This document shows positions 4,262-61,223 of a stretch of 64,000 bases of DNA, piece by piece. Under the pieces are notes generated by a model, which was not told the origin of the DNA, did no database searches, and saw nothing but the letters and a program-made list of their open reading frames with translations. Positions within the stretch are counted from its first letter, which is position 1; every line of letters begins with the position of its first letter. The DNA comes from Candidatus Omnitrophota bacterium. GTDB lineage: Bacteria; Omnitrophota; Gorgyraeia; JAFGIU01. The position numbers were made by a program, and so were the translations under genes. The stretch lies in contig JAFGIU010000041.1 of NCBI GenBank assembly GCA_016929445.1, positions 1,929 through 65,928 on the forward strand, in the 5' to 3' direction.

Positions 4262-4316
4262 GGGGACAGGTCTCGCCAACCGCTTATACACCAATAAGTT
4301 GTATGAGAACCGTCCC
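4262..4316. repeat. Hairpin repeat family copy A (GGGGAC(A/G)G(T/G)TCTC ... GAGAACCGTCCCC arms, ~30-nt loop)
   Basis: Direct reading. Imperfect 13-bp inverted arms flank a variable loop, between convergent hemH and redoxin genes. Related copies at 8385, 40378 and 45979. Confidence 0.6.
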
Positions 4317-4325
4317 CGTATAGAA

Positions 4326-4907
4326 CTATCCGAAATAATCCGGCTCGTTCCCCGGCTTCCACTTAATATTGCAGCCCATGCTCGGTTTCTGATTTCCGTC
4401 CACAGTCCCGTTGATGACCACGGCGTCCATGGCCGCGCGCAGGTCTTTCCCTGTGACAGGTTTGCCGTTTTCCGGCCGGCTGTCGTCCAATTGTCCCCGG
4501 TAGGTGAGCTTGTGATTTGCGTTAAACAAAAAGAAGTCCGGGGTGCACGCAGCGGTGTAGGCCTTGGCTACTTCCTGGGTTTCGTCATAGAGCAGGGGAA
4601 AGGCGAAACCGAGCTGCTGCGCCATTTTCTTGAGCTTGTCCGGGGAGTCCTCAGGATGCGTGCCCACAAAGTTGGAGCTGATGGCGACAATAGCAACGTC
4701 CTTGTTTGCGTAATCCCTGCCGAGTCGTGCCAGCTCCTTCTGGACATGGACCACATAGGGGCAGTGCTTGCAGATGAACATGACCAAGAGGGCTGCCTTG
4801 TCCTTAGAGTCCTTGAGAGAGACTGTTTTTCCTGTGACCACATCCGGCAGGCTAAAATCCGGTGCCGCTGTGCCCAAAGCCAACATTGTCGATGGTGTGA
4901 GTGCCAC
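4326..4907 (-). CDS. Thioredoxin-fold redoxin (AhpC/TSA / TlpA-like thiol-disulfide oxidoreductase)
   Basis: CKHCPY CxxC motif in a redoxin context. 193 aa. Confidence 0.7.
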   Translation of the reverse strand: MALTPSTMLALGTAAPDFSLPDVVTGKTVSLKDSKDKAALLVMFICKHCPYVVHVQKELARLGRDYANKDVAIVAISSNFVGTHPEDSPDKLKKMAQQLGFAFPLLYDETQEVAKAYTAACTPDFFLFNANHKLTYRGQLDDSRPENGKPVTGKDLRAAMDAVVINGTVDGNQKPSMGCNIKWKPGNEPDYFG

Positions 4908-4938
4908 ATGTATTCCTTCTGTTTCACGAACGTTTCAC

Positions 4939-4977
4939 GGTGCCAGGCACCGGTGCCTGGCACCCGTGCCTGGCACC
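4939..4977. repeat. Palindromic repeat family copy 1 (GGTGCCAGGCACC|GGTGCCTGGCACC; core GGCACCGGTGCC)
   Basis: Perfect 26-bp palindrome plus an extra half-copy, flanked by CGTTTCACGG. It lies in the divergent intergenic region between the redoxin gene and giant-protein paralog P1. Related copies at 40657 and 60934. Confidence 0.7.
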
Positions 4978-5037
4978 ATTGTACTGGGGGGGCTGGATTT
5001 GGAAAGGGGCAGGGGAGAAAAATACTTACAAAAGAGA

Positions 5038-5066
5038 TTGATTAACTATGTGTGTAGTGGTATGCT
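5038..5066 (+). promoter_or_regulatory. Candidate sigma70-like promoter (TTGATT-17-TATGCT) for paralog P1
   Basis: Read from sequence in an AT-rich stretch upstream of ATG 5105. Hexamer matches only, no other support. Confidence 0.25.
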
Positions 5067-8384: not shown

Positions 8385-8439
8385 GGGGACGGTTCTCACA
8401 GAACTGGATGCAGCGAAAAAGGCTAGCGAGAACCGTCCC
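8385..8439. repeat. Hairpin repeat family copy B
   Basis: GGGGACGGTTCTC ... GAGAACCGTCCC arms with a ~29-nt loop, immediately upstream of the gdh start. Confidence 0.6.
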
Positions 8440-8610
8440 TAATCTTGACTCATTCTAACCGCTGAATGCTGAATTCGCATTAGAGTTTGTAACTTATTTG
8501 CAAACAAGTATTTAGAAAGAGGATCTCAAATTCTTGAATGCCGTCCTGAAGCTTATTTAGATGATATACTTTGTTGTAAATATACTAATTGGCACAAGTT
8601 ATACGAAACT

Positions 8611-15689: not shown

Positions 15690-15753
15690 TTTTGGGGGCC
15701 AAAGATTGCTTCCCCTTTAAAAGGCTCAGGGTCTCAATGAAGGCTGAACGCCC

Positions 15754-18231
15754 TTACTCAAATTTGAGCAGGTACCACGGACTCTGCGTGCCGCTCAAAT
15801 TCAGATCATGGCGCACGCGTCCGGACGCCAGGGAGGGCTCTTCATGGGGCTCGCCTTTTTCGTCGAGCGCATAGACCTGCAGCGAGTAGCGGTCGTGAAT
15901 GAAGAGTTGCAGATCCATGCCGCACAACATCGGTGTGCCGTCTCCCCATAAAAAGTGTTTGTCGCTGCGGCGCTTACTGCCGCGCGCTTGCAGGGGGCCC
16001 ACCGCATACAGAATCAGCTCTTGTGCTTCATCCAAAGGAACTCCGTCCGGGGCAATGAGGGCGCCAACGCCCTGGGAGCGGGTGTGGAACAGGGTCCGGC
16101 GTTTGGGGCTGGGGTTTAGGGCCGGGGCTCCGTAAATAATCGCCGCGCTGGAGTTGCTAAGGCCAATTCCGGTTTCGCTCACGGTCTTCTTCAGTTCCTC
16201 TTTTCCCAGATAAACCAGACTGCCCAAACTGCAGAGCAGGAGCTGTTGCGGGTTCGCCGCGATCTCAAAGTAGTCGTTTACTGCGCTGGCGTATTCATAG
16301 GAGTCAGCGCTATTCGCGAAGTTGTACTGGAATACTGCATCCCATCCGCGCTCTCTGGCGGTGTGGGCCAGGAGTACCGGCGTCTCCCAAGAGAATGTAT
16401 TGGGATAGCAATGATTCCATTCGCTTACGGTGAAGGGTTTGTCGCGGACTTCTTTCTCGATCAATCCGGCGAGCAGCCCCGTCTCCTCGGCCTCGCCCTC
16501 CTTGCCGAAGATGGATTCATTATGGATCCGGAAATCGCTGCGATCCCAGGCTTTGTCCGGGAACTGCGGGTAATCCCAAAATGCCTGGGCATCCACATAG
16601 TCCAGGTCTTCTTGGGTCCTGAGATTTTCCGGCAGAGGGTAGCCGCTGATGCCTGTGACCGGGACTTGAACCCCCGCCTCCACACGCAGAAAGCGCTCCA
16701 TCTCCGTGAAATAGGCCCTTTCCAATTCCAGGTAGAATTCCCGGATGTCCTTTTGCATGAGCTCAGGATAGAAATAAAGCCATGCGTACTTGGGGCGTTT
16801 GAAGTCAAATCGTGTCCTTTGGGCTTCCTTCATCAAAATGGGCAGAGTCGTGACCTTGGAGAGCCGCACATCTTTGATTCGCACCATGGCTTTTTGGGCG
16901 CCGAAGTAGAAGGTGAGTTTGGCGTTGAGGCAGTCGTCCGTGGCCGTAAAGGGAATCTGGTAGATGCGCCAGGCGCGATCCAATTCGCAAGATTGGTCAA
17001 GGCCGAGATGGGTGAGCGGAAAAGTCGCCTGCTGAATTACCGCCTGGATGTTGAGTGTGCGGTCTGCGCTGCCGGTGAATTCCAAGAGGTAGTTTTGCCC
17101 GGCCACAGTGGGAATGCGATTGCGCCGGTACTGAAGGTGCTCGGCTTTTCCGGTAACCAGATCGGCGTGCAGGATGGCCGCGCCGGCTGCGGAGTTGAAA
17201 CGGCAACGGGCATCGGCGTGTTTTTCGACCACCCACAGATGATCTTGCTGAACAATGGCGCGCTCCACAGGTTCCAGACCATCGAGGCCCCAGATAGCAA
17301 TGGCCTCCGCCGGGGTGGGGTATTTTTTCTCCAGCCAACGGTTCCACCGGTCATCCAGCTGCTTCAAGTAGAACTCCGGCAAATAGGCCTTTTCCCACAG
17401 ATTGTCGGGTTCGTTGAGCCGGCCTTGTTGCCAGGCCCGGATCAGGGAACAGTCGTTGACGATTTCGACGAAGGCGACAGCGGGTTCCTCAGAGTAGCGG
17501 CTTTCGGTGTAGGGGTTGTAGTGCGTAAGCAATTGCTTTGCGTAAATTTGTTGGAGCTTGATGAGGTGCGGGTCAAATAGACAGGCAGGCTTTGCTCCGG
17601 GGCCGAGCAGTCCGGCTTGGACAACACCGTCAGCCACCGTGAACCGGCGGTTGGTCAGTAGATTGAATGCGGTGTAGATGCCGCGCCGCTTAAGCAAGTA
17701 AATTAAACGGTCCATCCGGTCGAGCTGTTCCCTGCTGATCAATTGGGTGTTTTTGAGTTGCGGGTCGGTGTAACCGGGGGCACTGTCCTCCAACAAGCCA
17801 TCGGGGGCAAAGGCGCTGTCGATATCGCTGAAGCGGACTGCATTGAAACCGAAAAAAGCGATGCGATCTGCCGCAAACTTGGCCTCTTCCTCCGGAGGGA
17901 ATGCGCCTGAACGGCACAAATTAGTGCCCCAGAAGCGAGCTGGGCTGCCGTTATCAAATTGAAAATCCGCGCCGTTAACCTCGACATAGCCGTGAATACC
18001 GGCCGGCGCATTCAGCACATGCCTCCCGATATTGGCTGGAGAGTCCGGGTCGAGGTTTTTGTCCAGGGTAAAGGCGTACCAGGCCTCGGTGCTTTGAGCA
18101 AAGGCGGGCGGTATGAAGAGAAGAAACAGGGCAATCGTCATCGCAATGACAAAGATTGCTTTCCCTTCGGCAGGCTCAGGGTCGCAATGCCGGATTAGAT
18201 CTGCTCGCGGTGGCCTTGGAGTGATGGTCAT
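15754..18231 (-). CDS. Secreted glycoside hydrolase (TIM-barrel, GH5-like/cellulase superfamily)
   Basis: N-terminal signal/TM (IALFLLFIPPAFAQS). RFWGTNL and NAVRF motifs typical of GH clan A. Its ATG overlaps the stop of the upstream kinase (ATGA coupling). Confidence 0.55.
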   Translation of the reverse strand: MTITPRPPRADLIRHCDPEPAEGKAIFVIAMTIALFLLFIPPAFAQSTEAWYAFTLDKNLDPDSPANIGRHVLNAPAGIHGYVEVNGADFQFDNGSPARFWGTNLCRSGAFPPEEEAKFAADRIAFFGFNAVRFSDIDSAFAPDGLLEDSAPGYTDPQLKNTQLISREQLDRMDRLIYLLKRRGIYTAFNLLTNRRFTVADGVVQAGLLGPGAKPACLFDPHLIKLQQIYAKQLLTHYNPYTESRYSEEPAVAFVEIVNDCSLIRAWQQGRLNEPDNLWEKAYLPEFYLKQLDDRWNRWLEKKYPTPAEAIAIWGLDGLEPVERAIVQQDHLWVVEKHADARCRFNSAAGAAILHADLVTGKAEHLQYRRNRIPTVAGQNYLLEFTGSADRTLNIQAVIQQATFPLTHLGLDQSCELDRAWRIYQIPFTATDDCLNAKLTFYFGAQKAMVRIKDVRLSKVTTLPILMKEAQRTRFDFKRPKYAWLYFYPELMQKDIREFYLELERAYFTEMERFLRVEAGVQVPVTGISGYPLPENLRTQEDLDYVDAQAFWDYPQFPDKAWDRSDFRIHNESIFGKEGEAEETGLLAGLIEKEVRDKPFTVSEWNHCYPNTFSWETPVLLAHTARERGWDAVFQYNFANSADSYEYASAVNDYFEIAANPQQLLLCSLGSLVYLGKEELKKTVSETGIGLSNSSAAIIYGAPALNPSPKRRTLFHTRSQGVGALIAPDGVPLDEAQELILYAVGPLQARGSKRRSDKHFLWGDGTPMLCGMDLQLFIHDRYSLQVYALDEKGEPHEEPSLASGRVRHDLNLSGTQSPWYLLKFE

Positions 18232-34617: not shown

Positions 34618-35840
34618 TAGGCAAAAACCTCGCTGACCTTCTGAATTCCCCGAACCAGGGCATCGATTTCTTGAACCGTGTTGTAGAGTCCGAAAGAGGC
34701 GCGGGCCGAGGCCGGAATGCCGTAATGATCCATTACGGGTTGAGTGCAGTGGTGCCCGCTTCGAATGGCAATCCCTTCCTGGTCGAGAATCGTCCCCACA
34801 TCATGGGCGTGGGCCCCCTCAATGACAAAGGAAAGGACGCCGGCTTTTTGTTCGGCCGTCCCGATCAAACGCACACCCTTTAAAGCACTGATACGGGCCG
34901 TGGCATGCTGAAGGAGCTCGGATTCATGTGCGGCAATGGCTTCCAGACCCAGGCTCTTCAGATAATCAACGGCTGCGCCCAGACCGATACTGCCCGCAAT
35001 ATTCGGTGTTCCGGCCTCGAACTTGTAGGGCAGATCGTTGTATGTGGTTTTTTCAAAAGACACCGAGCGGATCATGTCTCCTCCGCCTTGGTAGGGCGGG
35101 AGTCTATCCAGCCATTCGGTCTTGGCATAGAGCACGCCGATTCCCGTGGGGCCGTAAAGTTTGTGTCCGGAAAGCACAAAAAAGTCACAGTCGAGTTCCC
35201 GGACGTTGACCCTAAAATGGGGAGCGGATTGCGCACCGTCAATCAGCACGGGGATGCCGCGGGCATGGGCTCGTTGAATAATTTCTTCAATAGGATTAAT
35301 GGTGCCCAGGGAATTAGATAGGTGCACCACAGAAACCAGCTTGGTCTTCTCGTTCAAGGCCTTATCGAACTCATCCAAGAGGAGTGTACCGCTTTGGTCA
35401 AAGGGGACTATCCGCAGCTTGACGCCGGTCTCATCGCGCAAAATCTGCCAGGGCACGATGTTGGAGTGGTGTTCCATTTCGGTGATGAGTATTTCATCCC
35501 CGGGGCGGAGTAAGGAGCGGCCCAGGCTGTGGGCCACAAGGTTGATGGCCTCTGTGGCGCCGCGCACAAACACGATTTCATGCGCGTGTTGTGCGCCGAG
35601 AAAGTCTTGAACTTTCTGCCGCGAAGTCTCGTAGGAGGCTGTGGCACGCTCGCTCAAAGTGTGTACGCCGCGATGAATATTGGCGTTGTCTTGGGTGTAG
35701 TAGTTCTCCAGGGCATCAAGGACCTGACGGGGCTTTTGGGTGGTGGCGGCGTTGTCCAGGTACACGAGCGGGTGGCCGTGCACTTGTTGGTGCAATATGG
35801 GGAAGTCCCGGCGGATTTGTGCAATATTCAAGGCGTTCAT
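34617..35840 (-). CDS. sufS: Cysteine desulfurase SufS (class V aminotransferase, group II)
   Basis: PLP-lysine region SGHKLYGPTGIGVLY. Active-site loop RSGHHC. 407 aa. Confidence 0.9.
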   Translation of the reverse strand: MNALNIAQIRRDFPILHQQVHGHPLVYLDNAATTQKPRQVLDALENYYTQDNANIHRGVHTLSERATASYETSRQKVQDFLGAQHAHEIVFVRGATEAINLVAHSLGRSLLRPGDEILITEMEHHSNIVPWQILRDETGVKLRIVPFDQSGTLLLDEFDKALNEKTKLVSVVHLSNSLGTINPIEEIIQRAHARGIPVLIDGAQSAPHFRVNVRELDCDFFVLSGHKLYGPTGIGVLYAKTEWLDRLPPYQGGGDMIRSVSFEKTTYNDLPYKFEAGTPNIAGSIGLGAAVDYLKSLGLEAIAAHESELLQHATARISALKGVRLIGTAEQKAGVLSFVIEGAHAHDVGTILDQEGIAIRSGHHCTQPVMDHYGIPASARASFGLYNTVQEIDALVRGIQKVSEVFA

Positions 35841-40377: not shown

Positions 40378-40433
40378 GGGGACGGTTCTTGATTACCCCT
40401 TTCATCACGGCAGCTTACGCGAGAACCGTCCCC
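40378..40433. repeat. Hairpin repeat family copy C
   Basis: GGGGACGGTTCTT ... GAGAACCGTCCCC, beginning 6 nt after the stop of the small ORF. Confidence 0.6.
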
Positions 40434-40481: not shown

Positions 40482-43400
40482 TTGGATGCTAGACTTGAGC
40501 TTATGCATCCTTTTCGCTCCCACCCTCCTTTGAAGTCATTTAAGCCCCGCGGTTTTTGGGCCCTTCGGGGCTGGGCTGTCATGCGGCCAGTGGCCCTGCT
40601 GATTGCCCAAGTCTTCTTCTTTTCCAGCGTGGATTGCGCATGGACCTCTGACCTCGGTGCCAGGCACCGGTGTCAGGCACCGGTGTCAGGCACCGGTGTC
40701 AGGCACCAAAACTTGGCAGTGCGGGCCAGGTATGAAGGCGAGGTTGCCGCGGCAATGGACGCATGGCTGGTTGCTCCGGGAGTCAAGGAGCGTGTGCTTA
40801 TGCTGCCCACCGAGAGCCGTGCGCAACTGCTCGGCCTGGTTGGGGCTGAGCAGGAAGCATTTCTTCACAACAGAATGGTGGAGTTGGCCCTGGAGGACGG
40901 GCAGGCTGAGCTGGTGGCAGGGATGGCACAAAAGGCGCTTGAGCGCCTGGATTCTTCCGGGCCCAGAGGCTGGCCTCATCCGGCATTGGCGGAGAGTTCT
41001 GCAGCGCTCCGGGCGCTTTTGGAGCAAGACCCCTCTGCATACGAGCGTTTGCTGGCTCTGGAGGAGGAACGCTACGAGCGCACCTATCCGTACTCTGATT
41101 CAGTACTGGAAGACCTTCCTAATTTCCGCCGTCATCTCAATCACAAGCTCGCACTGTTGATGGTGGTGGAAGAGGTGGAGACAGTTCGATGGTTATTGGA
41201 TAAAGGGCTCCTTCAAGAACACGAGATTAACTCTTTTCTGAGTGTGCGACGCTTATTGCTTTCTCTGGTGATGACTCCCCAACCGGAACCCGAAAATGAC
41301 AGTGAGTATTGGCAGGTCCCGAATATTCAGGATCACCTGGGGCGGATGGGAAGCATGCTGTTGGTTTTGCTGTACGAAAACCGGGATCGCTTTGAGATTT
41401 CTTCCGACGAGATCTTGGAAGTCTACTTCACAGCCCTTACCCACGACTGGGGGGATTATTACACGGAGTCCAGCGATCTAATTGTGGTTAAGGAGGTTGC
41501 CCGGCAACTGGGCATTGACAGTTCGGCCGAGAAGTACCTTCGAGGCGGATTTCCGCAATTGTTGGAGGACCTCAACTTGGCGGTTGATGAGCGCGGGAAT
41601 GAAGTCGATCCCGCATGGATGACCCGCTACAATGCGGTTCAGCCCCGGTTCGATTTGTTGGTGACTCGCAGTAGCGCCAAGAATCCGCTGGATCATCATT
41701 CCAAAGGCCGCTACGAAGAGTTCCTGTTGAGGGAGGATGTGCGGGCGCTTTTGGAGCCGTTGAGTTTCCGGGGTCGTGCCGTGACCCGGATGCTGGACGA
41801 CTTCCGGTATCTGACGCACCACCACGCTTCCCAGGAGCTGGAGTTCGATCTGTCCCCAGAGTCTCATCGAGGCCCGCGCCTCGCAGAGGCACAGAAGCCC
41901 GCAGCGCAGGACATTCCCCGTCGCGTCCAATATTGGGAAGGTATCTCCCTGACCGGGGATCAGAAGGGCGTGTTGGCATTGCTTCAGGCCGCGGATATGT
42001 ATCAGAAGCGTCTCAATGCCGCCAACAACATGTGGTTCTATCTGAACAGTGTTCGAGCCTTCCGTCCCGCGGACGTAAAGGACTATGTGATGGCCTTTCC
42101 ATTTGCAAGGCCCATCGCCTCCAGCATAAGAAAGGTCGCGGATAGCGGCGATCCGCTCTTCTCCGGCGCGGCGGTGCGGAGTATGGGCTATGTAACGGAG
42201 TTGCCGGACACAGGAACGGGAGCTGCGGAAGAAGACCGGCCCGGCGCCAACACGGCATCGCGGGCAGGTGAAGTAGGCCACAGCACAATGAACCGGGTGG
42301 CCTTTATGAGCGACAAGTACCAGGCGTGGCGGGCGGGTGAGGGCGTGGAGGAGGGGGCCTTGCTGCGTGAGGCGCTTCCCTTGCCGGAGGATCTGCAAGG
42401 GTCTTGGGGCGGGTTTATGGCCGATCTGCAACAGCGCTTTGATGCGGTGGACGAGAGCGGGGCGCCTCTGATCCTGGACGGGATCGAGCTCCCGGCCTCC
42501 CAATCCCCGGCCGGCGGAATGCTGCGCGCCCCGCCCCTGCAGATTCCGCTCTCCGCTCTTCTCAACGGACAAGCCCGCATTGCCTCCGGCCTTCCCACCG
42601 GCGAAATGATCCACATCAAAGACACGTCCATCGTGCTTTTGGACACCGAAGAAGACTTCCTGGCGGCCGAGCTGCACGAGGATCTGGAGAGTGTGTCCGT
42701 GCAATTCGCGCATGCGGGCCGCGGGTTGCATGGCGAGCCGGGGCGGGAGCAGCGGCTGGTGGTGTATTTGTCCAAGGCCATGGTTGAGAAGGCGCTCCAC
42801 CGTGCGGAGGGCTATGCGCCGGAACACTTGATGGCCCTGATCGCCGAGGAGATGGCCGAGGAAGTGCGGCGCAGGCAGGCGGAGATGCTTTCGGCACAAT
42901 TGGGGCTCGGAGGGGCGGCCGCGGTGGCCCTGGAGCAACGCATTGTGGACGCAACGGACGCGCAGTTAACCAAAGCGGGCGGGGCGTTGGAAGGTGTTTT
43001 TACAGATCGCGATACGTATGCCCAGCTTGGAGATCGCAGAGAGCACCTCGTACAGTCCCTTGAGGGATTGGATACGGGCGTGCTTGCAAGATTGCGGCAG
43101 ACGGCTCCGGACAAGCTGGCGGAGTTCTTCCGCTATCGCGAGGCCCTGTTGGGGCCGAATCCTCCGCTCGACTGGCGCAATCTTCCGGCTAATGGGGCGC
43201 TCGATCTGTATGAATCCCATATTGCCGACGTGCTCGCATTGGAAATGGTGATTCAGGGATACAACCTGCACAAGGGACGGGTCGTATTTTCGATCGCCGA
43301 CTGGTTGGGTGCGGGCGCAGAGATCGCGGCGCGCGGTTCTTTTGATTTTGAAATCCGAGTAAAGCTGCCCGAACTGAATGGGGCGCCCTCGGAAATGAAG

Positions 43401-45917
43401 AGGCTTCTGCAAACGGAAATCAAGCATTTGGTCTTCTACCTCAAGCGGCACGCGGCCGGATATGCGTCCTCCAGCGAATTGGCCGCGGCAGAGAACGGCT
43501 ACTCAGACGGAGACGCCTTTGACTCTCTTGTTTTGGAAGAGATCCCGGATCATCTGGATGACATCCTTATGGGCCGGTCCACCTTTGCCTGGAAGGCGAG
43601 GCAAAGCAGAGAACGGGTAGGAGGGACCAGAAGAGCGAGTGTGGATAGATCCGCGAATGCGCATCCCTACGCAAAGCTTATAGTGGGCCGGATTTTGCCG
43701 GAGATGTTGCAGCGCTGGGGCGTGGATATTCAAGCCGAACCGGAGATTGGAGAAATCCTGGTGGAATTCGCCACCTGGTTTGTGGCCGAGGAGGAGCTGC
43801 GGCCGTATGGGGATTTGAGCGATCAGAGAACGTTGTCTCACAAGTTCATTTCGCGAATCCAGGCAATGGAGTCGGCGGACGCGCTTTACGCGGCCGTGGA
43901 TCGTCATTTGCAGCGGGCTGAAGCGCGGGCGCTTTTTCCGGATGCGGCACGCATGTTGAATCGGCGCAGGAGGGAGTTGATGCAGTGGAGAGATGCGCAA
44001 AGCGCGTATGAGGACGATTATTTGGAGCGCGCCAACGTGGGCTCCAGACAGCGCGGCTCGGTTTGGAGGCCTTGGGACTTCACGCGGGAAGAAAGCCAAC
44101 TCATTGCCGAGGCGTGTCTGCGTGGGGCCACGGGAGAAGGGGCCCCGGAGCTGGACTGGCAGCGCAGTGGGCGGCTGTATTGGGAAGCGCCGATCGGGAT
44201 CGATCCGTTTGTTCAGAAGCGCCTGTTTTCCGGCTCACAGGTCCAGCGCGCCTTTGCCGTTAAGGATTCTCAAGGTCTGCTGGCCGCGGTGGCCGCCACG
44301 CCGGAGGGATTCAAATACCTGCTGTTGACGGGCGGCGAGGGTGCGGTGGACCGGATGGACCGGTATATAAACCAGAAAGGCGGAGCCTCTCAGTGGAATC
44401 AGGTGGAAGAGGTCAGGCAGGGCTTCCTAAACGACGAGTTCGGAATAGAACGCACGAGCATCCCGGTTCTCCCTGGGGTATGGCCTCCGGGAGTGTCCGA
44501 TCCGCTCGCTTTGATCGCGCAACAGCGGATCAGGCCGGGCTCCACGGTCTTGGATCTGGGATGCGGGACCGGAGTGATCGGCAGTGTGTTGCCGGAGTGT
44601 TATGTGATCATGTCCGATATCGATCCGATGGGGGCCAGTAATGGAGAGATTTCCGCGAAATTGTGCGGAGCAGTGAGCGGGGTGGAGTCCATCCGCATGG
44701 ACGGGCTGCGCGGATTTAACAGAAAGGTGGATTGGATTGTTCTTGCCGCCCCGAGGCCGGTCCATGCGGCCGGTGCGGCGGAAGCGGCCACGGCAACACA
44801 GGATCCCGGAGGCCGCCTGTTGAACGAAGCGCTGCGGGAATTACCGCGGGTTCTGAACGCCCCGGGAGGCCTGCTGCTGATGGTGAGCAATGAGGTGGCT
44901 GTTCAAAGGAGGGTCCGGGAGATGCACGGGGAGGCTTTTTGGGTGGAGGTGGTGGACAGGGACCTCTACCAGCAGGTGGTTGCGGTCCAATGGAATATGG
45001 ATTTTTATCGCGAGCAGGCTGCGGTGCCCGGGGCCACGGAGGATTCTGCAGCGGGTCCTGCAGTCGTCACCGGCGACCTGGACCTTCTGATAGAGATTCT
45101 TTCAGAGACTCTGCCGGGATCAAACTTCCAACAATTTAACGGAGTGCCTTACTCGGTGACGCGGCTGCAAACCGGAGAGTGGCGGTTGACGATTCATAAG
45201 GGCGCCGAAGGATTTGAGGAATTGATGCCGCGGGGCAAAGACGGAGTCATCTATGATGACCCGGAAAGGATCGCCGAAAGCGTCAAAGCGAAGGCATTGG
45301 GTTTGCTGGGCGTTTACGAGGCCTCCCTGCCGGAAGCGCATGAATTTGGCGGGCCGTTGCTGGTGGTCGGCCCCGGGCCGACTCTGGGAGAGGTGGATGC
45401 GCTTGTGTCCCATTTTCAGGCTCTGGATAGCGGGAGTGTGGATGTGATGGAAGTGTCGAACCGGAACGTACTGTCTTTGCTGAGAAGACTCCAGGAAATT
45501 GAAGCGGAAGGCGGGGAGAATGAAGCTTTGCTGCACAGAGTGGGAACAATCCACCACGCCCGCTTCGGGCAAAATGCGGGCCTGCTGGAAGAGGCGCGCT
45601 ATGGGTTTGTCTATGCGTTCGGCTCCGTGGACAGGGATCTGGCCGTCACCGTGGCCGGAGGGCCGGCCAATCAGCAAGAGGCGGTGGCTGTGCTGGAGGC
45701 GCAGTGGCGCGAGCTGTGGCGCATTCTCCAAGCCGGGGGATTGGGGCTGGGGCACTTTGAGTCCGAGGGGCCGGGCATGCGCTCCTTTTACACAGGGCGC
45801 GAGGCGTGGCGCCGCTTCCAAACCTTGGGGAATCCACGCTTTGACAGGGCTCTGGACTGGGTTCACAAGCCTGAAGAACTGGCCGTTGCCGCAGCAGCCC
45901 TGGAATCCTCCATCTAG
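40482..45917 (+). CDS. Giant protein paralog P3 (up to 1811 aa) with a degenerate HemK-like SAM methyltransferase domain; start uncertain
   Basis: The MTase region (~aa 1330-1480) has IPVLPGVWPPG and VLDLGCGTGVIG, but LAAPRP replaces NPPY, and is shared with P2. Possible starts: 40482; 40581 (MRPVALLIAQVFFFSSVDCA, signal-like, which would place the palindromic repeat in-frame); or 40755 (MDAWLV, which places the repeat upstream). AT-rich 5' flank. Confidence 0.75.
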   Translation: MDARLELMHPFRSHPPLKSFKPRGFWALRGWAVMRPVALLIAQVFFFSSVDCAWTSDLGARHRCQAPVSGTGVRHQNLAVRARYEGEVAAAMDAWLVAPGVKERVLMLPTESRAQLLGLVGAEQEAFLHNRMVELALEDGQAELVAGMAQKALERLDSSGPRGWPHPALAESSAALRALLEQDPSAYERLLALEEERYERTYPYSDSVLEDLPNFRRHLNHKLALLMVVEEVETVRWLLDKGLLQEHEINSFLSVRRLLLSLVMTPQPEPENDSEYWQVPNIQDHLGRMGSMLLVLLYENRDRFEISSDEILEVYFTALTHDWGDYYTESSDLIVVKEVARQLGIDSSAEKYLRGGFPQLLEDLNLAVDERGNEVDPAWMTRYNAVQPRFDLLVTRSSAKNPLDHHSKGRYEEFLLREDVRALLEPLSFRGRAVTRMLDDFRYLTHHHASQELEFDLSPESHRGPRLAEAQKPAAQDIPRRVQYWEGISLTGDQKGVLALLQAADMYQKRLNAANNMWFYLNSVRAFRPADVKDYVMAFPFARPIASSIRKVADSGDPLFSGAAVRSMGYVTELPDTGTGAAEEDRPGANTASRAGEVGHSTMNRVAFMSDKYQAWRAGEGVEEGALLREALPLPEDLQGSWGGFMADLQQRFDAVDESGAPLILDGIELPASQSPAGGMLRAPPLQIPLSALLNGQARIASGLPTGEMIHIKDTSIVLLDTEEDFLAAELHEDLESVSVQFAHAGRGLHGEPGREQRLVVYLSKAMVEKALHRAEGYAPEHLMALIAEEMAEEVRRRQAEMLSAQLGLGGAAAVALEQRIVDATDAQLTKAGGALEGVFTDRDTYAQLGDRREHLVQSLEGLDTGVLARLRQTAPDKLAEFFRYREALLGPNPPLDWRNLPANGALDLYESHIADVLALEMVIQGYNLHKGRVVFSIADWLGAGAEIAARGSFDFEIRVKLPELNGAPSEMKRLLQTEIKHLVFYLKRHAAGYASSSELAAAENGYSDGDAFDSLVLEEIPDHLDDILMGRSTFAWKARQSRERVGGTRRASVDRSANAHPYAKLIVGRILPEMLQRWGVDIQAEPEIGEILVEFATWFVAEEELRPYGDLSDQRTLSHKFISRIQAMESADALYAAVDRHLQRAEARALFPDAARMLNRRRRELMQWRDAQSAYEDDYLERANVGSRQRGSVWRPWDFTREESQLIAEACLRGATGEGAPELDWQRSGRLYWEAPIGIDPFVQKRLFSGSQVQRAFAVKDSQGLLAAVAATPEGFKYLLLTGGEGAVDRMDRYINQKGGASQWNQVEEVRQGFLNDEFGIERTSIPVLPGVWPPGVSDPLALIAQQRIRPGSTVLDLGCGTGVIGSVLPECYVIMSDIDPMGASNGEISAKLCGAVSGVESIRMDGLRGFNRKVDWIVLAAPRPVHAAGAAEAATATQDPGGRLLNEALRELPRVLNAPGGLLLMVSNEVAVQRRVREMHGEAFWVEVVDRDLYQQVVAVQWNMDFYREQAAVPGATEDSAAGPAVVTGDLDLLIEILSETLPGSNFQQFNGVPYSVTRLQTGEWRLTIHKGAEGFEELMPRGKDGVIYDDPERIAESVKAKALGLLGVYEASLPEAHEFGGPLLVVGPGPTLGEVDALVSHFQALDSGSVDVMEVSNRNVLSLLRRLQEIEAEGGENEALLHRVGTIHHARFGQNAGLLEEARYGFVYAFGSVDRDLAVTVAGGPANQQEAVAVLEAQWRELWRILQAGGLGLGHFESEGPGMRSFYTGREAWRRFQTLGNPRFDRALDWVHKPEELAVAAAALESSI
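40657..40707. repeat. Palindromic repeat family copy 2 (GGTGCCAGGCACC followed by 3 tandem GGTGTCAGGCACC units)
   Basis: Direct reading. Same GGCACCGGTG core as copies 1 and 3. Lies at or just inside the 5' end of P3. Confidence 0.7.
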
Positions 45918-45978
45918 AAACTTTCACCCTTGCCGTCCCACCCTGTTTCGCTATACTAATTCATTCTGTCCTCATTCA

Positions 45979-46033
45979 GGGACAGGTCTCGCCATCTCAT
46001 TGCCGGCCAGTGGGTTACGCGAGACCCGTCCCC
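45979..46033. repeat. Hairpin repeat family copy D (variant arms GGGACAGGTCTCGC / GCGAGACCCGTCCCC)
   Basis: Between the P3 stop and bcp. A partial extra GGGGACGG follows at 46054. Confidence 0.55.
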
Positions 46034-58748: not shown

Positions 58749-59906
58749 TCAATCCGCTCCGTTGGACAACTTTGTCAACGTTTCCACAATGTATCCGAAA
58801 TCGCCGGCCTGCATCCGGTTGTGTAAAGGAAGCGCAAGGGTTTGCTGCGCGCATCGCAGTGCATTGGGGTAGTCTTCCGGATTGAAATGCAACTGATTGC
58901 GATAGTACCCGAGATCAGGAACGCATTGGGTGCCGGGGCGGGTGCTGATGCCGCGCTCTTGGAGTTTGGCCATGAGTTCGTTCCGGCTAAAAGGAGCATG
59001 GGTTTCGTTCACCGTGCAGATAAAGGATTGCCAGGCATGCCCGCAATCAGCGGGAATGCGGGGAGGCTCAAGCCAGGGGATAGCCCGGAGTTCCTCTATA
59101 TAGTAGGCAGCCCAGCGCGCTCGATCCTGAATCATGGTGTCGAGCTTTTCGAGTTGTACAAGCCCGACAGCGCCTTGAAGATCCGTCATCCGGTAGTTGA
59201 ATCCCAATAAGTTGAAGTCCGGCAGCAAATAAGGCTGCGGCCCTTGGTGGCGCTGCTCTTCCGAGATTTCGGCTCCGTGATTGCGGAGCTTGGCCACGCA
59301 TTCGGCGAGCGCCTTATCATTCGTCGTGACCATGCCTCCCTCGCCGGTGGTAATCGACTTGCGCGGATGAAATGAAAACGCGGCGGCAGTTCCCAAACCC
59401 CCTGCGGGCCGGCCCTTGTAAGTGCTGCCCGTAGCGCAGGCCGCATCTTCCACCAAGGGAATACCTTGCGCGGCCTCAGCGATCGCATTCATGTCAGCGC
59501 AGAGACCGAAAAGATGGACCGGAATAATGGCTCTGGTCTTTGGGGTGATTGCTGCACTCAAAGACTTGGGGTCCAGGTTAAATGTATGAGGATCAATATC
59601 CACGAATACGGGCTTTGCTCCGCAGTAGAGCACGGCGTTGGAGGTTGCAACCCAGGTAAACGCGGGGACAATGACTTCATCCCCGGGGCCGATTTCCAGG
59701 GAGGCGAGGATCAAATGCAGGGCGGTGGTGCAGCTGCTTGCGGCGAGTCCGTAGCGCACATGGTGGCGCGAAGCGAAGGCCTGTTCAAACGCGGCGACTT
59801 TAGGGCCCTGGGTGATCCATCCCGACATCAAGGGTTCTTTGAGAGCCTGCCACTCTTCTTCGCCGGTGCAGGGTTGGGAAATTTGAATCGAGCGCAATTT
59901 ATTCAA
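58749..59906 (-). CDS. DegT/DnrJ/EryC1/StrS-family PLP-dependent sugar aminotransferase
   Basis: Characteristic N-terminus (PCTGEEEWQALKEPLMSGWITQGPKVAAFEQAFA) and PLP-Lys region (SFHPRKSITTGEGG). Confidence 0.9.
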   Translation of the reverse strand: MNKLRSIQISQPCTGEEEWQALKEPLMSGWITQGPKVAAFEQAFASRHHVRYGLAASSCTTALHLILASLEIGPGDEVIVPAFTWVATSNAVLYCGAKPVFVDIDPHTFNLDPKSLSAAITPKTRAIIPVHLFGLCADMNAIAEAAQGIPLVEDAACATGSTYKGRPAGGLGTAAAFSFHPRKSITTGEGGMVTTNDKALAECVAKLRNHGAEISEEQRHQGPQPYLLPDFNLLGFNYRMTDLQGAVGLVQLEKLDTMIQDRARWAAYYIEELRAIPWLEPPRIPADCGHAWQSFICTVNETHAPFSRNELMAKLQERGISTRPGTQCVPDLGYYRNQLHFNPEDYPNALRCAQQTLALPLHNRMQAGDFGYIVETLTKLSNGAD

Positions 59907-60916
59907 AGGGCCGCTCCTACTTTGTCCTTGTTACGCCATTCCACAAGCCGTTCAAGCCCTTGCTTGAGTCCGACCGATGCAGTGAACCCGAGTTCTTTTT
60001 GAGCCTTTTGCGGACACCCCACGCGGTTTTTTACAAAAGTCGGTCCGGCGGCCTCATACACAATCTTCTGCTTGGATCCCGTGATTTGCAGAAGCAGTTC
60101 AGCCAGTTCTTTGAGCGTGGTTTTCTTGCCCGTTCCTACGTTGTAAAAGGAATCCACGGTCTCGGACTTCATTGCGCAAAGGTTGGCCGCGGCACAATCC
60201 TGCACAGCCACAAAATCATAGGCCTGAGACCCGTCCCCGTAAAGAATAGGCGGCAGTCCCTCGTCCAAGCGATCCAGAATCCGCATGATCACCGAAACAT
60301 AAGCGCCGTTATAATCCTGTCGCGGGCCAAACACGTTCATATAGCGCAGTCCCACATAGTCGAAGGCTGAGTCTGTTTTTTTGTAGCGATGATAGAGGGC
60401 GCGGGCCATGGCCTCGCCCGCAATCTTGGTGGCTCCGTAAAACGTGCGGTTGTTGAAAGGATGCCCCTCGGTCATGGGTTCGGCAACCGCGTCTCCGTAT
60501 ACAGAGGCGGATGAAGAATAGACAAGTCTTTTGACGGAATTCCTGGCGCAAGCCTCCAGCACGTTGAAGGTCCCTCTGATATTGACGTCAAAGGCGCTGC
60601 GGGGGTATTCCTCACAGTGCAGTAGCCAAAGCGCGGCAAAATGGAAGACGCCGTCCATCCGTTTCATGGCCGCATCCAAGAGCTCCGGGTGCAAAATGTC
60701 CCCGCCGTGCTCAAAGATCCGGGTGCGCGGGTCTTTGAGCGCTTGGCTGAGATTTTCTTTGGAGCCGCGGGCGAAGTTATCAAACACGCAGACTTCTTCC
60801 ACATCCTCTTGGAGGAGTTGGTCTACGGTGTGGGAACCGATCAATCCGGCTCCTCCGATCACCAAAAATCGCTTTCCTTTTAGATCCATGGATTCGTCCC
60901 TGTCAGGCATGTCCAA
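59903..60916 (-). CDS. NAD-dependent sugar-nucleotide epimerase/dehydratase (SDR; WbpP/UDP-GlcNAc-epimerase-like)
   Basis: GGAGLIGSH Rossmann motif, SSSASVYG, YGATK. ATGA overlap with the degT start. Confidence 0.85.
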   Translation of the reverse strand: MDMPDRDESMDLKGKRFLVIGGAGLIGSHTVDQLLQEDVEEVCVFDNFARGSKENLSQALKDPRTRIFEHGGDILHPELLDAAMKRMDGVFHFAALWLLHCEEYPRSAFDVNIRGTFNVLEACARNSVKRLVYSSSASVYGDAVAEPMTEGHPFNNRTFYGATKIAGEAMARALYHRYKKTDSAFDYVGLRYMNVFGPRQDYNGAYVSVIMRILDRLDEGLPPILYGDGSQAYDFVAVQDCAAANLCAMKSETVDSFYNVGTGKKTTLKELAELLLQITGSKQKIVYEAAGPTFVKNRVGCPQKAQKELGFTASVGLKQGLERLVEWRNKDKVGAAL

Positions 60917-60933: not shown

Positions 60934-60980
60934 GGTGTCAGGCACCGGTGCCAGGCACCGGTGCCTGACACCGTGAAACG
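60934..60980. repeat. Palindromic repeat family copy 3 (GGTGTCAGGCACC|GGTGCCAGGCACC|GGTGCCTGACACC, then GTGAAACG)
   Basis: Direct reading. Reverse-oriented relative to copy 1, including the CGTTTCAC flank. Sits 18 nt upstream of the epimerase start, at the head of the 10-gene glycan operon. Confidence 0.7.
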
Positions 60981-60983
60981 GGC

Positions 60984-61223
60984 TCAGAAGAGGTTCACGA
61001 ACAGGGCAAAGAGGGCGCCGGTCAGGGCGCCGTCGGCCAGGGCCCACAGGGATCCAAGCAGCAGGCCCCGGAAGGAGGGCCCAAAGCCCCGATAGATCCG
61101 CGAGAGGAGGCGTACCAGCTCCACGCCGGTGCCCCTTCGGGCCATGAGGCCCATCAAAAAGATGCACGATGACCAGGCCACGCCCACACTCAGGGCGCAG
61201 CGGGCCACATCCAAACGATGCAA
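60984..61223 (-). CDS. Possible small membrane protein (79 aa)
   Basis: Two hydrophobic stretches. Intergenic position between the large hypothetical gene and the palindrome. No other support. Confidence 0.3.
   Translation of the reverse strand: MHRLDVARCALSVGVAWSSCIFLMGLMARRGTGVELVRLLSRIYRGFGPSFRGLLLGSLWALADGALTGALFALFVNLF

Follow-up and report, generated by a model that had tools for sequence, protein, structure and literature searches.

The closest described counterparts of the repeat analyzed here are REP and BIME elements, which are short, dispersed, hairpin-forming palindromes that are mostly extragenic and lie near gene 3′ ends (PMC3337134, PMC3733652). One end of a REP bears a tag, the conserved tetranucleotide GTAG or CGTC, and intragenic REPs and RPEs that preserve the ORF have been documented (PMC3733652). 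REPs located ≤15 nt from a stop codon have been reported to stall ribosomes (PMC12306157). A REP is either one imperfect palindrome of 20 to 40 bp or an inverted doublet separated by a spacer, and REP families are usually lineage specific, reach tens to hundreds of copies per genome, and flank their cognate RAYT (Y1/HUH). RPEs are ∼100 to 150 bp long. MetJ met-box operators are tandem 8-bp palindromes in the promoters of one regulon with a known repressor, and classical contingency loci have repeats with units of 1 to 7 nt, at which phase variation proceeds through slipped-strand mispairing. MITEs possess terminal inverted repeats and a target-site duplication, and intrinsic terminators consist of a G+C-rich hairpin and a U-tract.

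We analyzed a 64-kb stretch of DNA from an uncultured Omnitrophota lineage (the window), which contains three arrays of a 13-bp palindromic unit. Like the REP, BIME, and REPIN elements of Escherichia coli and Pseudomonas (PMC3337134, PMC3733652), such arrays are G+C rich, dispersed, mostly extragenic, and predicted to form hairpins. They also resemble REP and BIME elements in lying often near stop codons or in convergent gaps, in being sometimes clustered or in tandem, and in the context-dependent effects that they may have. As REPs do, the window arrays can form palindromic stem-loops, here from 39 to 52 bp, with predicted G+C-rich stems of 18 to 19 bp (−36 to −46 kcal/mol; z of −3.5 to −7 versus shuffles). 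However, these are not canonical REPs. Neither GTAG nor CGTC abuts any of the three, none is a spacer-separated doublet, no target-site or other direct duplication flanks any copy, and no Y1_Tnp, RAYT, or other transposase or recombinase was detected among the ∼55 window ORFs scanned with Pfam; RAYTs were likewise absent from the top families of neighboring genes in other genomes. Whereas a REPIN is built from two inverted REPs and a spacer, the array units abut one another with a period of 13 bp, and the unit occurs in several phyla rather than in one lineage. Against the tens to hundreds of REP copies in a genome, three arrays were seen in 64 kb. Unlike a MITE, the element is palindrome throughout. 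Overall, we favor, at a probability of about 0.55, the reading of all three sites as copies of a dispersed, REP/BIME-like palindromic element.

Three arrays of a 13-bp palindromic unit

The unit is GGTG(C/T)C-W-G(G/A)CACC, which is self-complementary and repeated head to tail without a spacer. Arrays occur at positions 4939 to 4977 (3 units), 40656 to 40707 (4 units), and 60934 to 60972 (3 units), and no further array of this unit was found in the 64-kb window (0 of 100 shuffles). The three palindromic sites reported in the first-pass annotation were thus recovered where it had placed them, apart from the start of copy 2 at 40656: the 12-bp palindrome GGCACCGGTGCC with ≤1 mismatch has 8 matches in the window versus 0.16 expected, and none of 100 shuffles reached 8. 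When ≤2 mismatches were permitted for the 13-mer, the matches comprised only the three arrays and two chance-level hits. Tandem Repeats Finder detected a period of 13 at all three arrays, with 3.1, 4.1, and 3.1 copies, and the iteration number per locus, previously given as 2 to 4, is 3, 4, and 3. The perfect palindrome GGCACCGGTGCC had been described as common to all three; it is present in copies 1 and 3 but absent from copy 2, in which the core 12-mer is GGCACCGGTGTC, occurring three times.

In copies 1 and 3, each 47 bp long, an 8-bp, one-sided tag, CGTTTCAC, is joined to a 39-bp near-perfect palindrome. The two are mutually inverted and share this flank, as first described, and their 47-nt arms, CGTTTCAC included, are 94% complementary; copy 2 has GACCTC as its flank. 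The tag itself is not enriched in the window (7 matches with ≤1 mismatch versus 4.25 expected), and no Rfam family was detected in the window at gathering thresholds.

Two other identities were considered and rejected. The tag motif GTTTCAC resembles half of the parS sequence TGTTTCACGTGAAACA, but a full palindrome is lacking and the tag is not overrepresented in the window. A sigma-54 promoter, suggested by TGGCAC within the unit, was ruled out by inspection, given the wrong spacing to any −12-like GC, and also by the GGTGTC/GACACC variants, which lack the GG of the consensus.

Copy 1 (4931 to 4977, plus strand) consists of the tag CGTTTCAC followed by the units GGTGCCAGGCACC, GGTGCCTGGCACC, and CGTGCCTGGCACC, which together make a 39-bp palindrome with one mismatch and a predicted RNA hairpin of −36 to −40 kcal/mol. 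It occupies the divergent gap between an AhpC/TSA-redoxin gene (4326 to 4907, minus strand), of which it lies upstream at 32 nt from the GTG start, and the gene for the large protein P1, which starts at 5048 or 5105. On the minus strand, a sigma-70-like promoter match at 4978 to 5005 (TTTCCA, 16-nt spacer, TACAAT; a consensus match only) directly abuts copy 1 with its −10 hexamer at 4978. If this candidate promoter applies, the array would be at +1 or in the 5′ untranslated region of the redoxin transcript, and copy 1 may give that RNA a hairpin at its 5′ end or close to it. A direct repeat of GTTTCAC (two copies, 11-bp spacing) also abuts copy 1 at 4921 to 4938, and its second copy is the tag; spacing of 11 bp is typical for sites of winged-helix response regulators.

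Copy 3 (60934 to 60980, minus strand) reads on its own strand as the tag CGTTTCAC plus three units, with a perfect 39-bp palindrome (19 + 1 + 19) and a predicted hairpin of −41 to −46 kcal/mol. It starts 11 nt past the stop codon (60984 to 60986) of a holin-like gene encoding a 79-amino-acid small membrane protein (60984 to 61223, minus strand; NCBIfam holin_4, full length, E value of 1e-18). Downstream, the glycan cluster opens with the gene for an NAD-dependent epimerase/dehydratase (59903 to 60889, minus strand). The end of copy 3 is 44 nt from the likely ATG at 60889, which replaces the 18-nt distance to a start at 60916 given earlier. Copy 3 may serve as a stem-loop, either 3′ or intercistronic, that could shield the holin-like mRNA and dampen read-through toward the glycan operon. 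Its 11-nt distance from the stop codon fits the class of ribosome-stalling REPs (PMC12306157), and it could also disturb terminating ribosomes. Of the proposal that every copy lies directly 5′ of a gene in a promoter-proximal position, only the part concerning copy 1 stands; copy 2 is within the reading frame of P3, and copy 3 comes just after the end of the holin-like gene.

Arrays of the unit in other genomes

The pattern GGCACCGGTGYCWGRCACC was scanned over one genome per GTDB species and yielded at least 120 loci; among the matches listed, many are single chance matches in high-GC genomes and none is from the genome of the window. The tandem 13-bp unit was found at ≥13 loci in the Gaiellales metagenome-assembled genome (MAG) BP_430, at ≥9 loci in the Caspian proteobacterial MAG casp150-mb.100, at ≥6 loci in the gammaproteobacterial MAG KW1-S15_96, and at ≥5 loci in the Actinomycetota MAG BR1F70218_bin_207. 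Within single genomes, an identical sequence of 26 to 39 bp recurs at ≥5 to ≥13 loci. Among the matches listed, the variant GGTGTC-W-GACACC clusters in loci from Thermoleophilia, Acidobacteriota, Burkholderiales, and Bordetella. No arrays were found in viral contigs or phages, and plasmids gave a single chance match, in a Streptomyces PKS gene. In the searchable literature, variants of the unit appeared only in eukaryotic primers and constructs, with no bacterial context.

Arrays outside the window have 1 to 7 units. Eight JGI metagenome contigs carry 3 to 7 units each. A metagenome scan for the tag joined to an array gave no match. The longest array that we encountered, at positions 532 to 622 of contig Ga0179591_1209457, has seven units and lies between two same-strand ORFs. 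It is composed of three GGTGTCAGGCACC, three AGTGTCAGGCACC, and one further GGTGTCAGGCACC, the variant that is also found in copy 2, and in it the local amplification of individual variants is plain. In this array as in copy 2, identical variants stand together in blocks, which indicates growth of the arrays through tandem duplication in place.

The genomic context of these arrays was assessed for the 62 arrays or clusters with ≥2 units among the matches listed, 39 of which could be classified. These fell into same-strand (23), convergent (13), and divergent (3) gaps, compared with a background of 56, 19, and 25%, respectively, so that divergent gaps are depleted (3/39 versus 25%) and convergent gaps are enriched among the arrays listed. 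In the other genomes, again among the matches listed, the median distance was 26 nt for gene 3′ ends and 112 nt for gene 5′ ends. The 100 ORFs nearest to arrays contain 147 Pfam families, none of them in more than two ORFs, and represent unrelated housekeeping genes, including those for glutamine synthetase, phosphoenolpyruvate carboxylase, aconitase, and Clp protease. A search for co-occurring regulator genes, proposed in the first-pass annotation, likewise returned no enriched family, and neither a regulator nor a transposase stands out in the top-25 family list for these 100 ORFs. Based on the dispersal of the arrays in unrelated genomes, mostly after stop codons and beside unrelated genes, we consider the REP/BIME-like interpretation, one of those offered initially, to be supported.

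Several features bear on which part of the repeat is conserved. In two-unit arrays, the pairs of central W bases are AT (7 cases), TA (5), AA (6), and TT (1). The W positions of adjacent units are thus free of pairing constraint, which indicates that the conserved entity is the 13-bp 6-1-6 unit and not a long hairpin; a free central base fits binding by a protein at least as well as hairpin formation. Strand cases of G-U pairing numbered 2 in the sense and 4 in the antisense orientation, a very small sample without bias, so a function at the RNA level is only a candidate. The element repeated in the Gaiellales MAG is 55 to 75 bp long and consists of the array and a one-sided flank, paralleling the tag-plus-array build in the window.

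Units also occur in loose clusters with 20- to 57-bp spacing rather than as abutting tandems, at loci L102 (Lachnospiraceae RUG12573), L055, L081, L101, and L057. L081 has four GGTGTCTGACACC within 150 bp, and L102 has six GGTGYCWGRCACC units, mostly GGTGCCTGACACC, in its 7.3 kb. These clusters resemble BIME-like clusters.

How the arrays may arise

Under the REP/BIME-like interpretation, arrays would grow and shrink via slipped-strand mispairing, and new copies would come from a putative trans-acting activity (RAYT-like or another hairpin-recognizing enzyme) or from repeated local formation. The function of an array would then be incidental and dependent on its context. The positions of the window copies count in part against this interpretation: two of the three are extragenic, but only one follows a stop codon, leaving two outside the usual location 3′ of a gene. 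The sharing of the unit across phyla could reflect convergence among G+C-rich palindromes.

An array within the gene for a giant protein

Copy 2 (40656 to 40707, plus strand) has no tag and comprises four units, GGTGCCAGGCACC followed by three identical GGTGTCAGGCACC, with a predicted hairpin of −46 kcal/mol (z of −6.3). It is translated in the frame of the P3 gene (40581 to 45917, plus strand; 1,778 amino acids from the ATG at 40581, with a deposited start at 40503), 75 nt past the ATG, and encodes GARHRCQAPVSGTGVRH. The deposited 1,804-amino-acid protein (P0121) also contains the array-encoded segment. P3 begins with a signal-peptide-like hydrophobic N terminus, MRPVALLIAQVFFFSSVDCA, continues with the array-encoded linker and then a motif common to P1 and P2, and has a methyltransferase domain near its C terminus. 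The motif, xLAxxxxF/YGxxE...W...P...LQRIAELSE, lies just behind the signal peptides of P1 and P2, and its counterpart in P3, NLAVRARYEGE...AW..P..KERVLMLPTESR, follows directly after the array; the three N-terminal regions were aligned by eye, and BLASTP gave an E value of only 0.19. Copy 2 may thus be an in-frame passenger that is tolerated in a linker behind the signal peptide.

A search of 1.84 billion representative proteins with the N-terminal 700 amino acids of P3 found no homolog other than P3 itself, and accordingly no ortholog with an empty array site. The array-encoded peptide had 104 word-sharing candidates, none of which was significant, so arrays within predicted proteins appear to be rare in the collection searched. 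As in the RPEs of Rickettsia (PMC3733652), a palindromic repeat here resides in an ORF with the frame unbroken. Yet the two have no sequence relationship, copy 2 being 52 bp of tandem 13-mers, and precise removal of the entire array would not restore the frame; simulated deletion left P3 out of frame.

Three large proteins are encoded in the window, P1 (5105 to 7021), P2 (8611 to 13419), and P3 (40581 to 45917), and each has a signal-peptide-like N terminus followed by a motif of the form ..LAT..TFG..E...W....P..LQRIAELSE... P2 and P3 are 34% identical over 288 amino acids in the region containing the methyltransferase. The P3 gene (window positions 42000 to 46000) has a G+C content of 0.605, versus a window average of ∼0.55, and a GC skew of 0.155, also above average, which could reflect foreign origin or composition bias.

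Alternative explanations

The array in P3 can alternatively be read as a contingency locus, in which slipped-strand mispairing would switch the secreted giant protein off. We regard this as doubtful, although it would be compatible with a REP-like origin of the repeat. Like simple-sequence contingency loci, copy 2 has a unit that is not a multiple of 3 and is situated toward the 5′ end of a gene whose product is secreted or at the cell surface, and the gain or loss of one unit would shift the frame of P3 because 13 leaves a remainder of 1 on division by 3. Among the simulated alleles tried, only those with 1, 4, or 7 units encode the full-length protein, whereas those with 0, 2, 3, 5, 6, or 8 units reach a stop after 42 to 201 amino acids. 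The identity of units 2 to 4 points to recent local duplication, and the variable unit number of arrays elsewhere is also consistent with such a switch. Nevertheless, four palindromic 13-nt units are long and few compared with the repeats of classical loci, and an array would be in frame by chance in one of three cases. Furthermore, at exactly 39 bp, the three identical extra units make up 13 whole codons, a length that purifying selection on the reading frame would explain as well as switching.

A second alternative is that the arrays are independent structural hairpins, serving as terminators without a U-tract or as protectors of mRNA 3′ ends and having neither mobility nor shared ancestry; they would have arisen in each lineage by local duplication of a G+C-rich palindrome. 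The proximity of arrays elsewhere to gene 3′ ends is in keeping with this idea, as are the A-runs and T-runs that flank the arrays of the Caspian MAG in the manner of bidirectional intrinsic terminators, and convergence is conceivable for a 6-1-6 palindrome, which has only six free positions. However, the recurrence of an identical 26- to 39-bp sequence at many loci of one genome requires copying, and ∼1 Mb of loci yielded just 2 other well-formed palindromic tandem arrays with a score of ≥55, versus 46 of the 13-bp family. In addition, A/T-run flanks of this kind were observed for the Caspian MAG alone; no array in the window received a terminator-like call, and a T-tract follows 0 of 3. We therefore consider independent hairpins an improbable account of the family.

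The REP/BIME-like interpretation must also be weighed against an operator array, in which each 6-1-6 unit would bind a dimeric regulator, cooperatively over tandem units as in MetJ, and redoxin/P1, P3, and the glycan operon would be coregulated. The form of the repeat suits such a role, since the 6-1-6 palindromic unit leaves its central base free and the units, like met-boxes, stand head to tail without spacers. Copy 1 abuts the −10 element of a promoter-like site, copy 3 is upstream of the epimerase ATG, and cell envelope- or stress-related genes border all three sites. The locations are otherwise unfavorable: copy 2 is within a coding frame, copy 3 immediately follows a gene, and arrays elsewhere are depleted in divergent promoter gaps and, among the matches listed, lie a median of 26 nt after stop codons. 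Unlike met-boxes, most arrays follow genes, and a linked regulator appeared neither as an enriched family among the 100 neighboring ORFs elsewhere nor in the window, where the sole DNA-binding regulator, an Rrf2 protein, is encoded in the suf operon. Moreover, P2, the paralog of P3, has no array upstream. We conclude that an operator array is distinctly unlikely. The shared regulator of the giant-protein genes and glycan operon that had been proposed is not borne out, given the misplaced copies 2 and 3 and the depleted divergent gaps; nor does the motif tie the accessory modules together, with one copy coding, one after a stop codon, and no neighboring family enriched.

Site-specific recombination, by which the inverted 47-bp copies 1 and 3 would mediate inversion of the intervening 56-kb segment, is suggested by their long complementary arms but is very improbable, as the GC skew is positive across both sites with its sign unchanged, the ∼55 window ORFs scanned include no recombinase or transposase gene, and neither copy 2 nor the arrays in other genomes fit the scheme.

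Other repeats and genes in the window

We observed a second repeat family in the window, with the structure GGGGAC(G/A)G(T/G)TCTC, ∼30 nt, GAGA(A/C)CCGTCCCC, with a variable loop on a conserved 13-bp stem. Full copies are at 4262 to 4317, 8385 to 8440, 40378 to 40433, and about 45980 to 46033, and single arms are at 34785, 60226, and 28513. Arms with ≤2 mismatches numbered 10, versus 1.87 expected (0 of 100 shuffles), and the predicted folds have energies of −27 to −33 kcal/mol. The four full copies are all intergenic: one adjoins the 3′ end of the redoxin gene, and the others lie between the glutamate dehydrogenase (GDH) gene and P2, between a suf-side ORF and P3, and between P3 and AhpC. These neighborhoods coincide with those of the 13-mer arrays. 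The family could be another REP-like family or a genuine shared regulatory site.

A 40-nt direct repeat (15700 to 15739 and 18150 to 18189; 85% identical, 2,450 bp apart) brackets an 825-amino-acid ORF (15754 to 18231, minus strand) that has no Pfam match. The GDH of the window matches MBN1586472.1, of a Candidatus Omnitrophica MAG, at 100% identity, and its next relatives are ≤73% identical.

Implications

The repeat is ordinary in nature and REP-like, and what is unusual about it is the tag-less tandem-13-mer build that recurs across phyla, together with the in-frame copy in P3. Recognizing the shared motif as a generic dispersed palindrome takes away a tempting but unsupported connection of the giant-protein genes with the glycan operon, as the motif is not evidence that they have a common regulator. 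The identical 13-bp unit forms multicopy arrays in distant phyla and finds no mention in the searchable literature. If convergence is not the explanation, its recurrence points to an unrecognized system for mobilizing or recognizing REP-like DNA. In this uncultured Omnitrophota lineage, the translated palindromic array in an orphan, secreted protein of 1,778 amino acids is a candidate for phase variation.

More speculatively, and with low confidence, GGTGYC-W-GRCACC may be the unit of a cosmopolitan, undescribed superfamily of tag-less palindromic repeats, which would occur as tandem arrays just past stop codons in Omnitrophota, Actinomycetota, Pseudomonadota, and probably Acidobacteriota. If this is true, it would imply a promiscuous mobilizing enzyme or a conserved host factor that recognizes the 6-1-6 site, for example, in a protein-mediated transcription roadblock or terminator. 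The array in P3 would then have been captured as a frameshift switch with a 13-nt unit for a secreted orphan giant protein.
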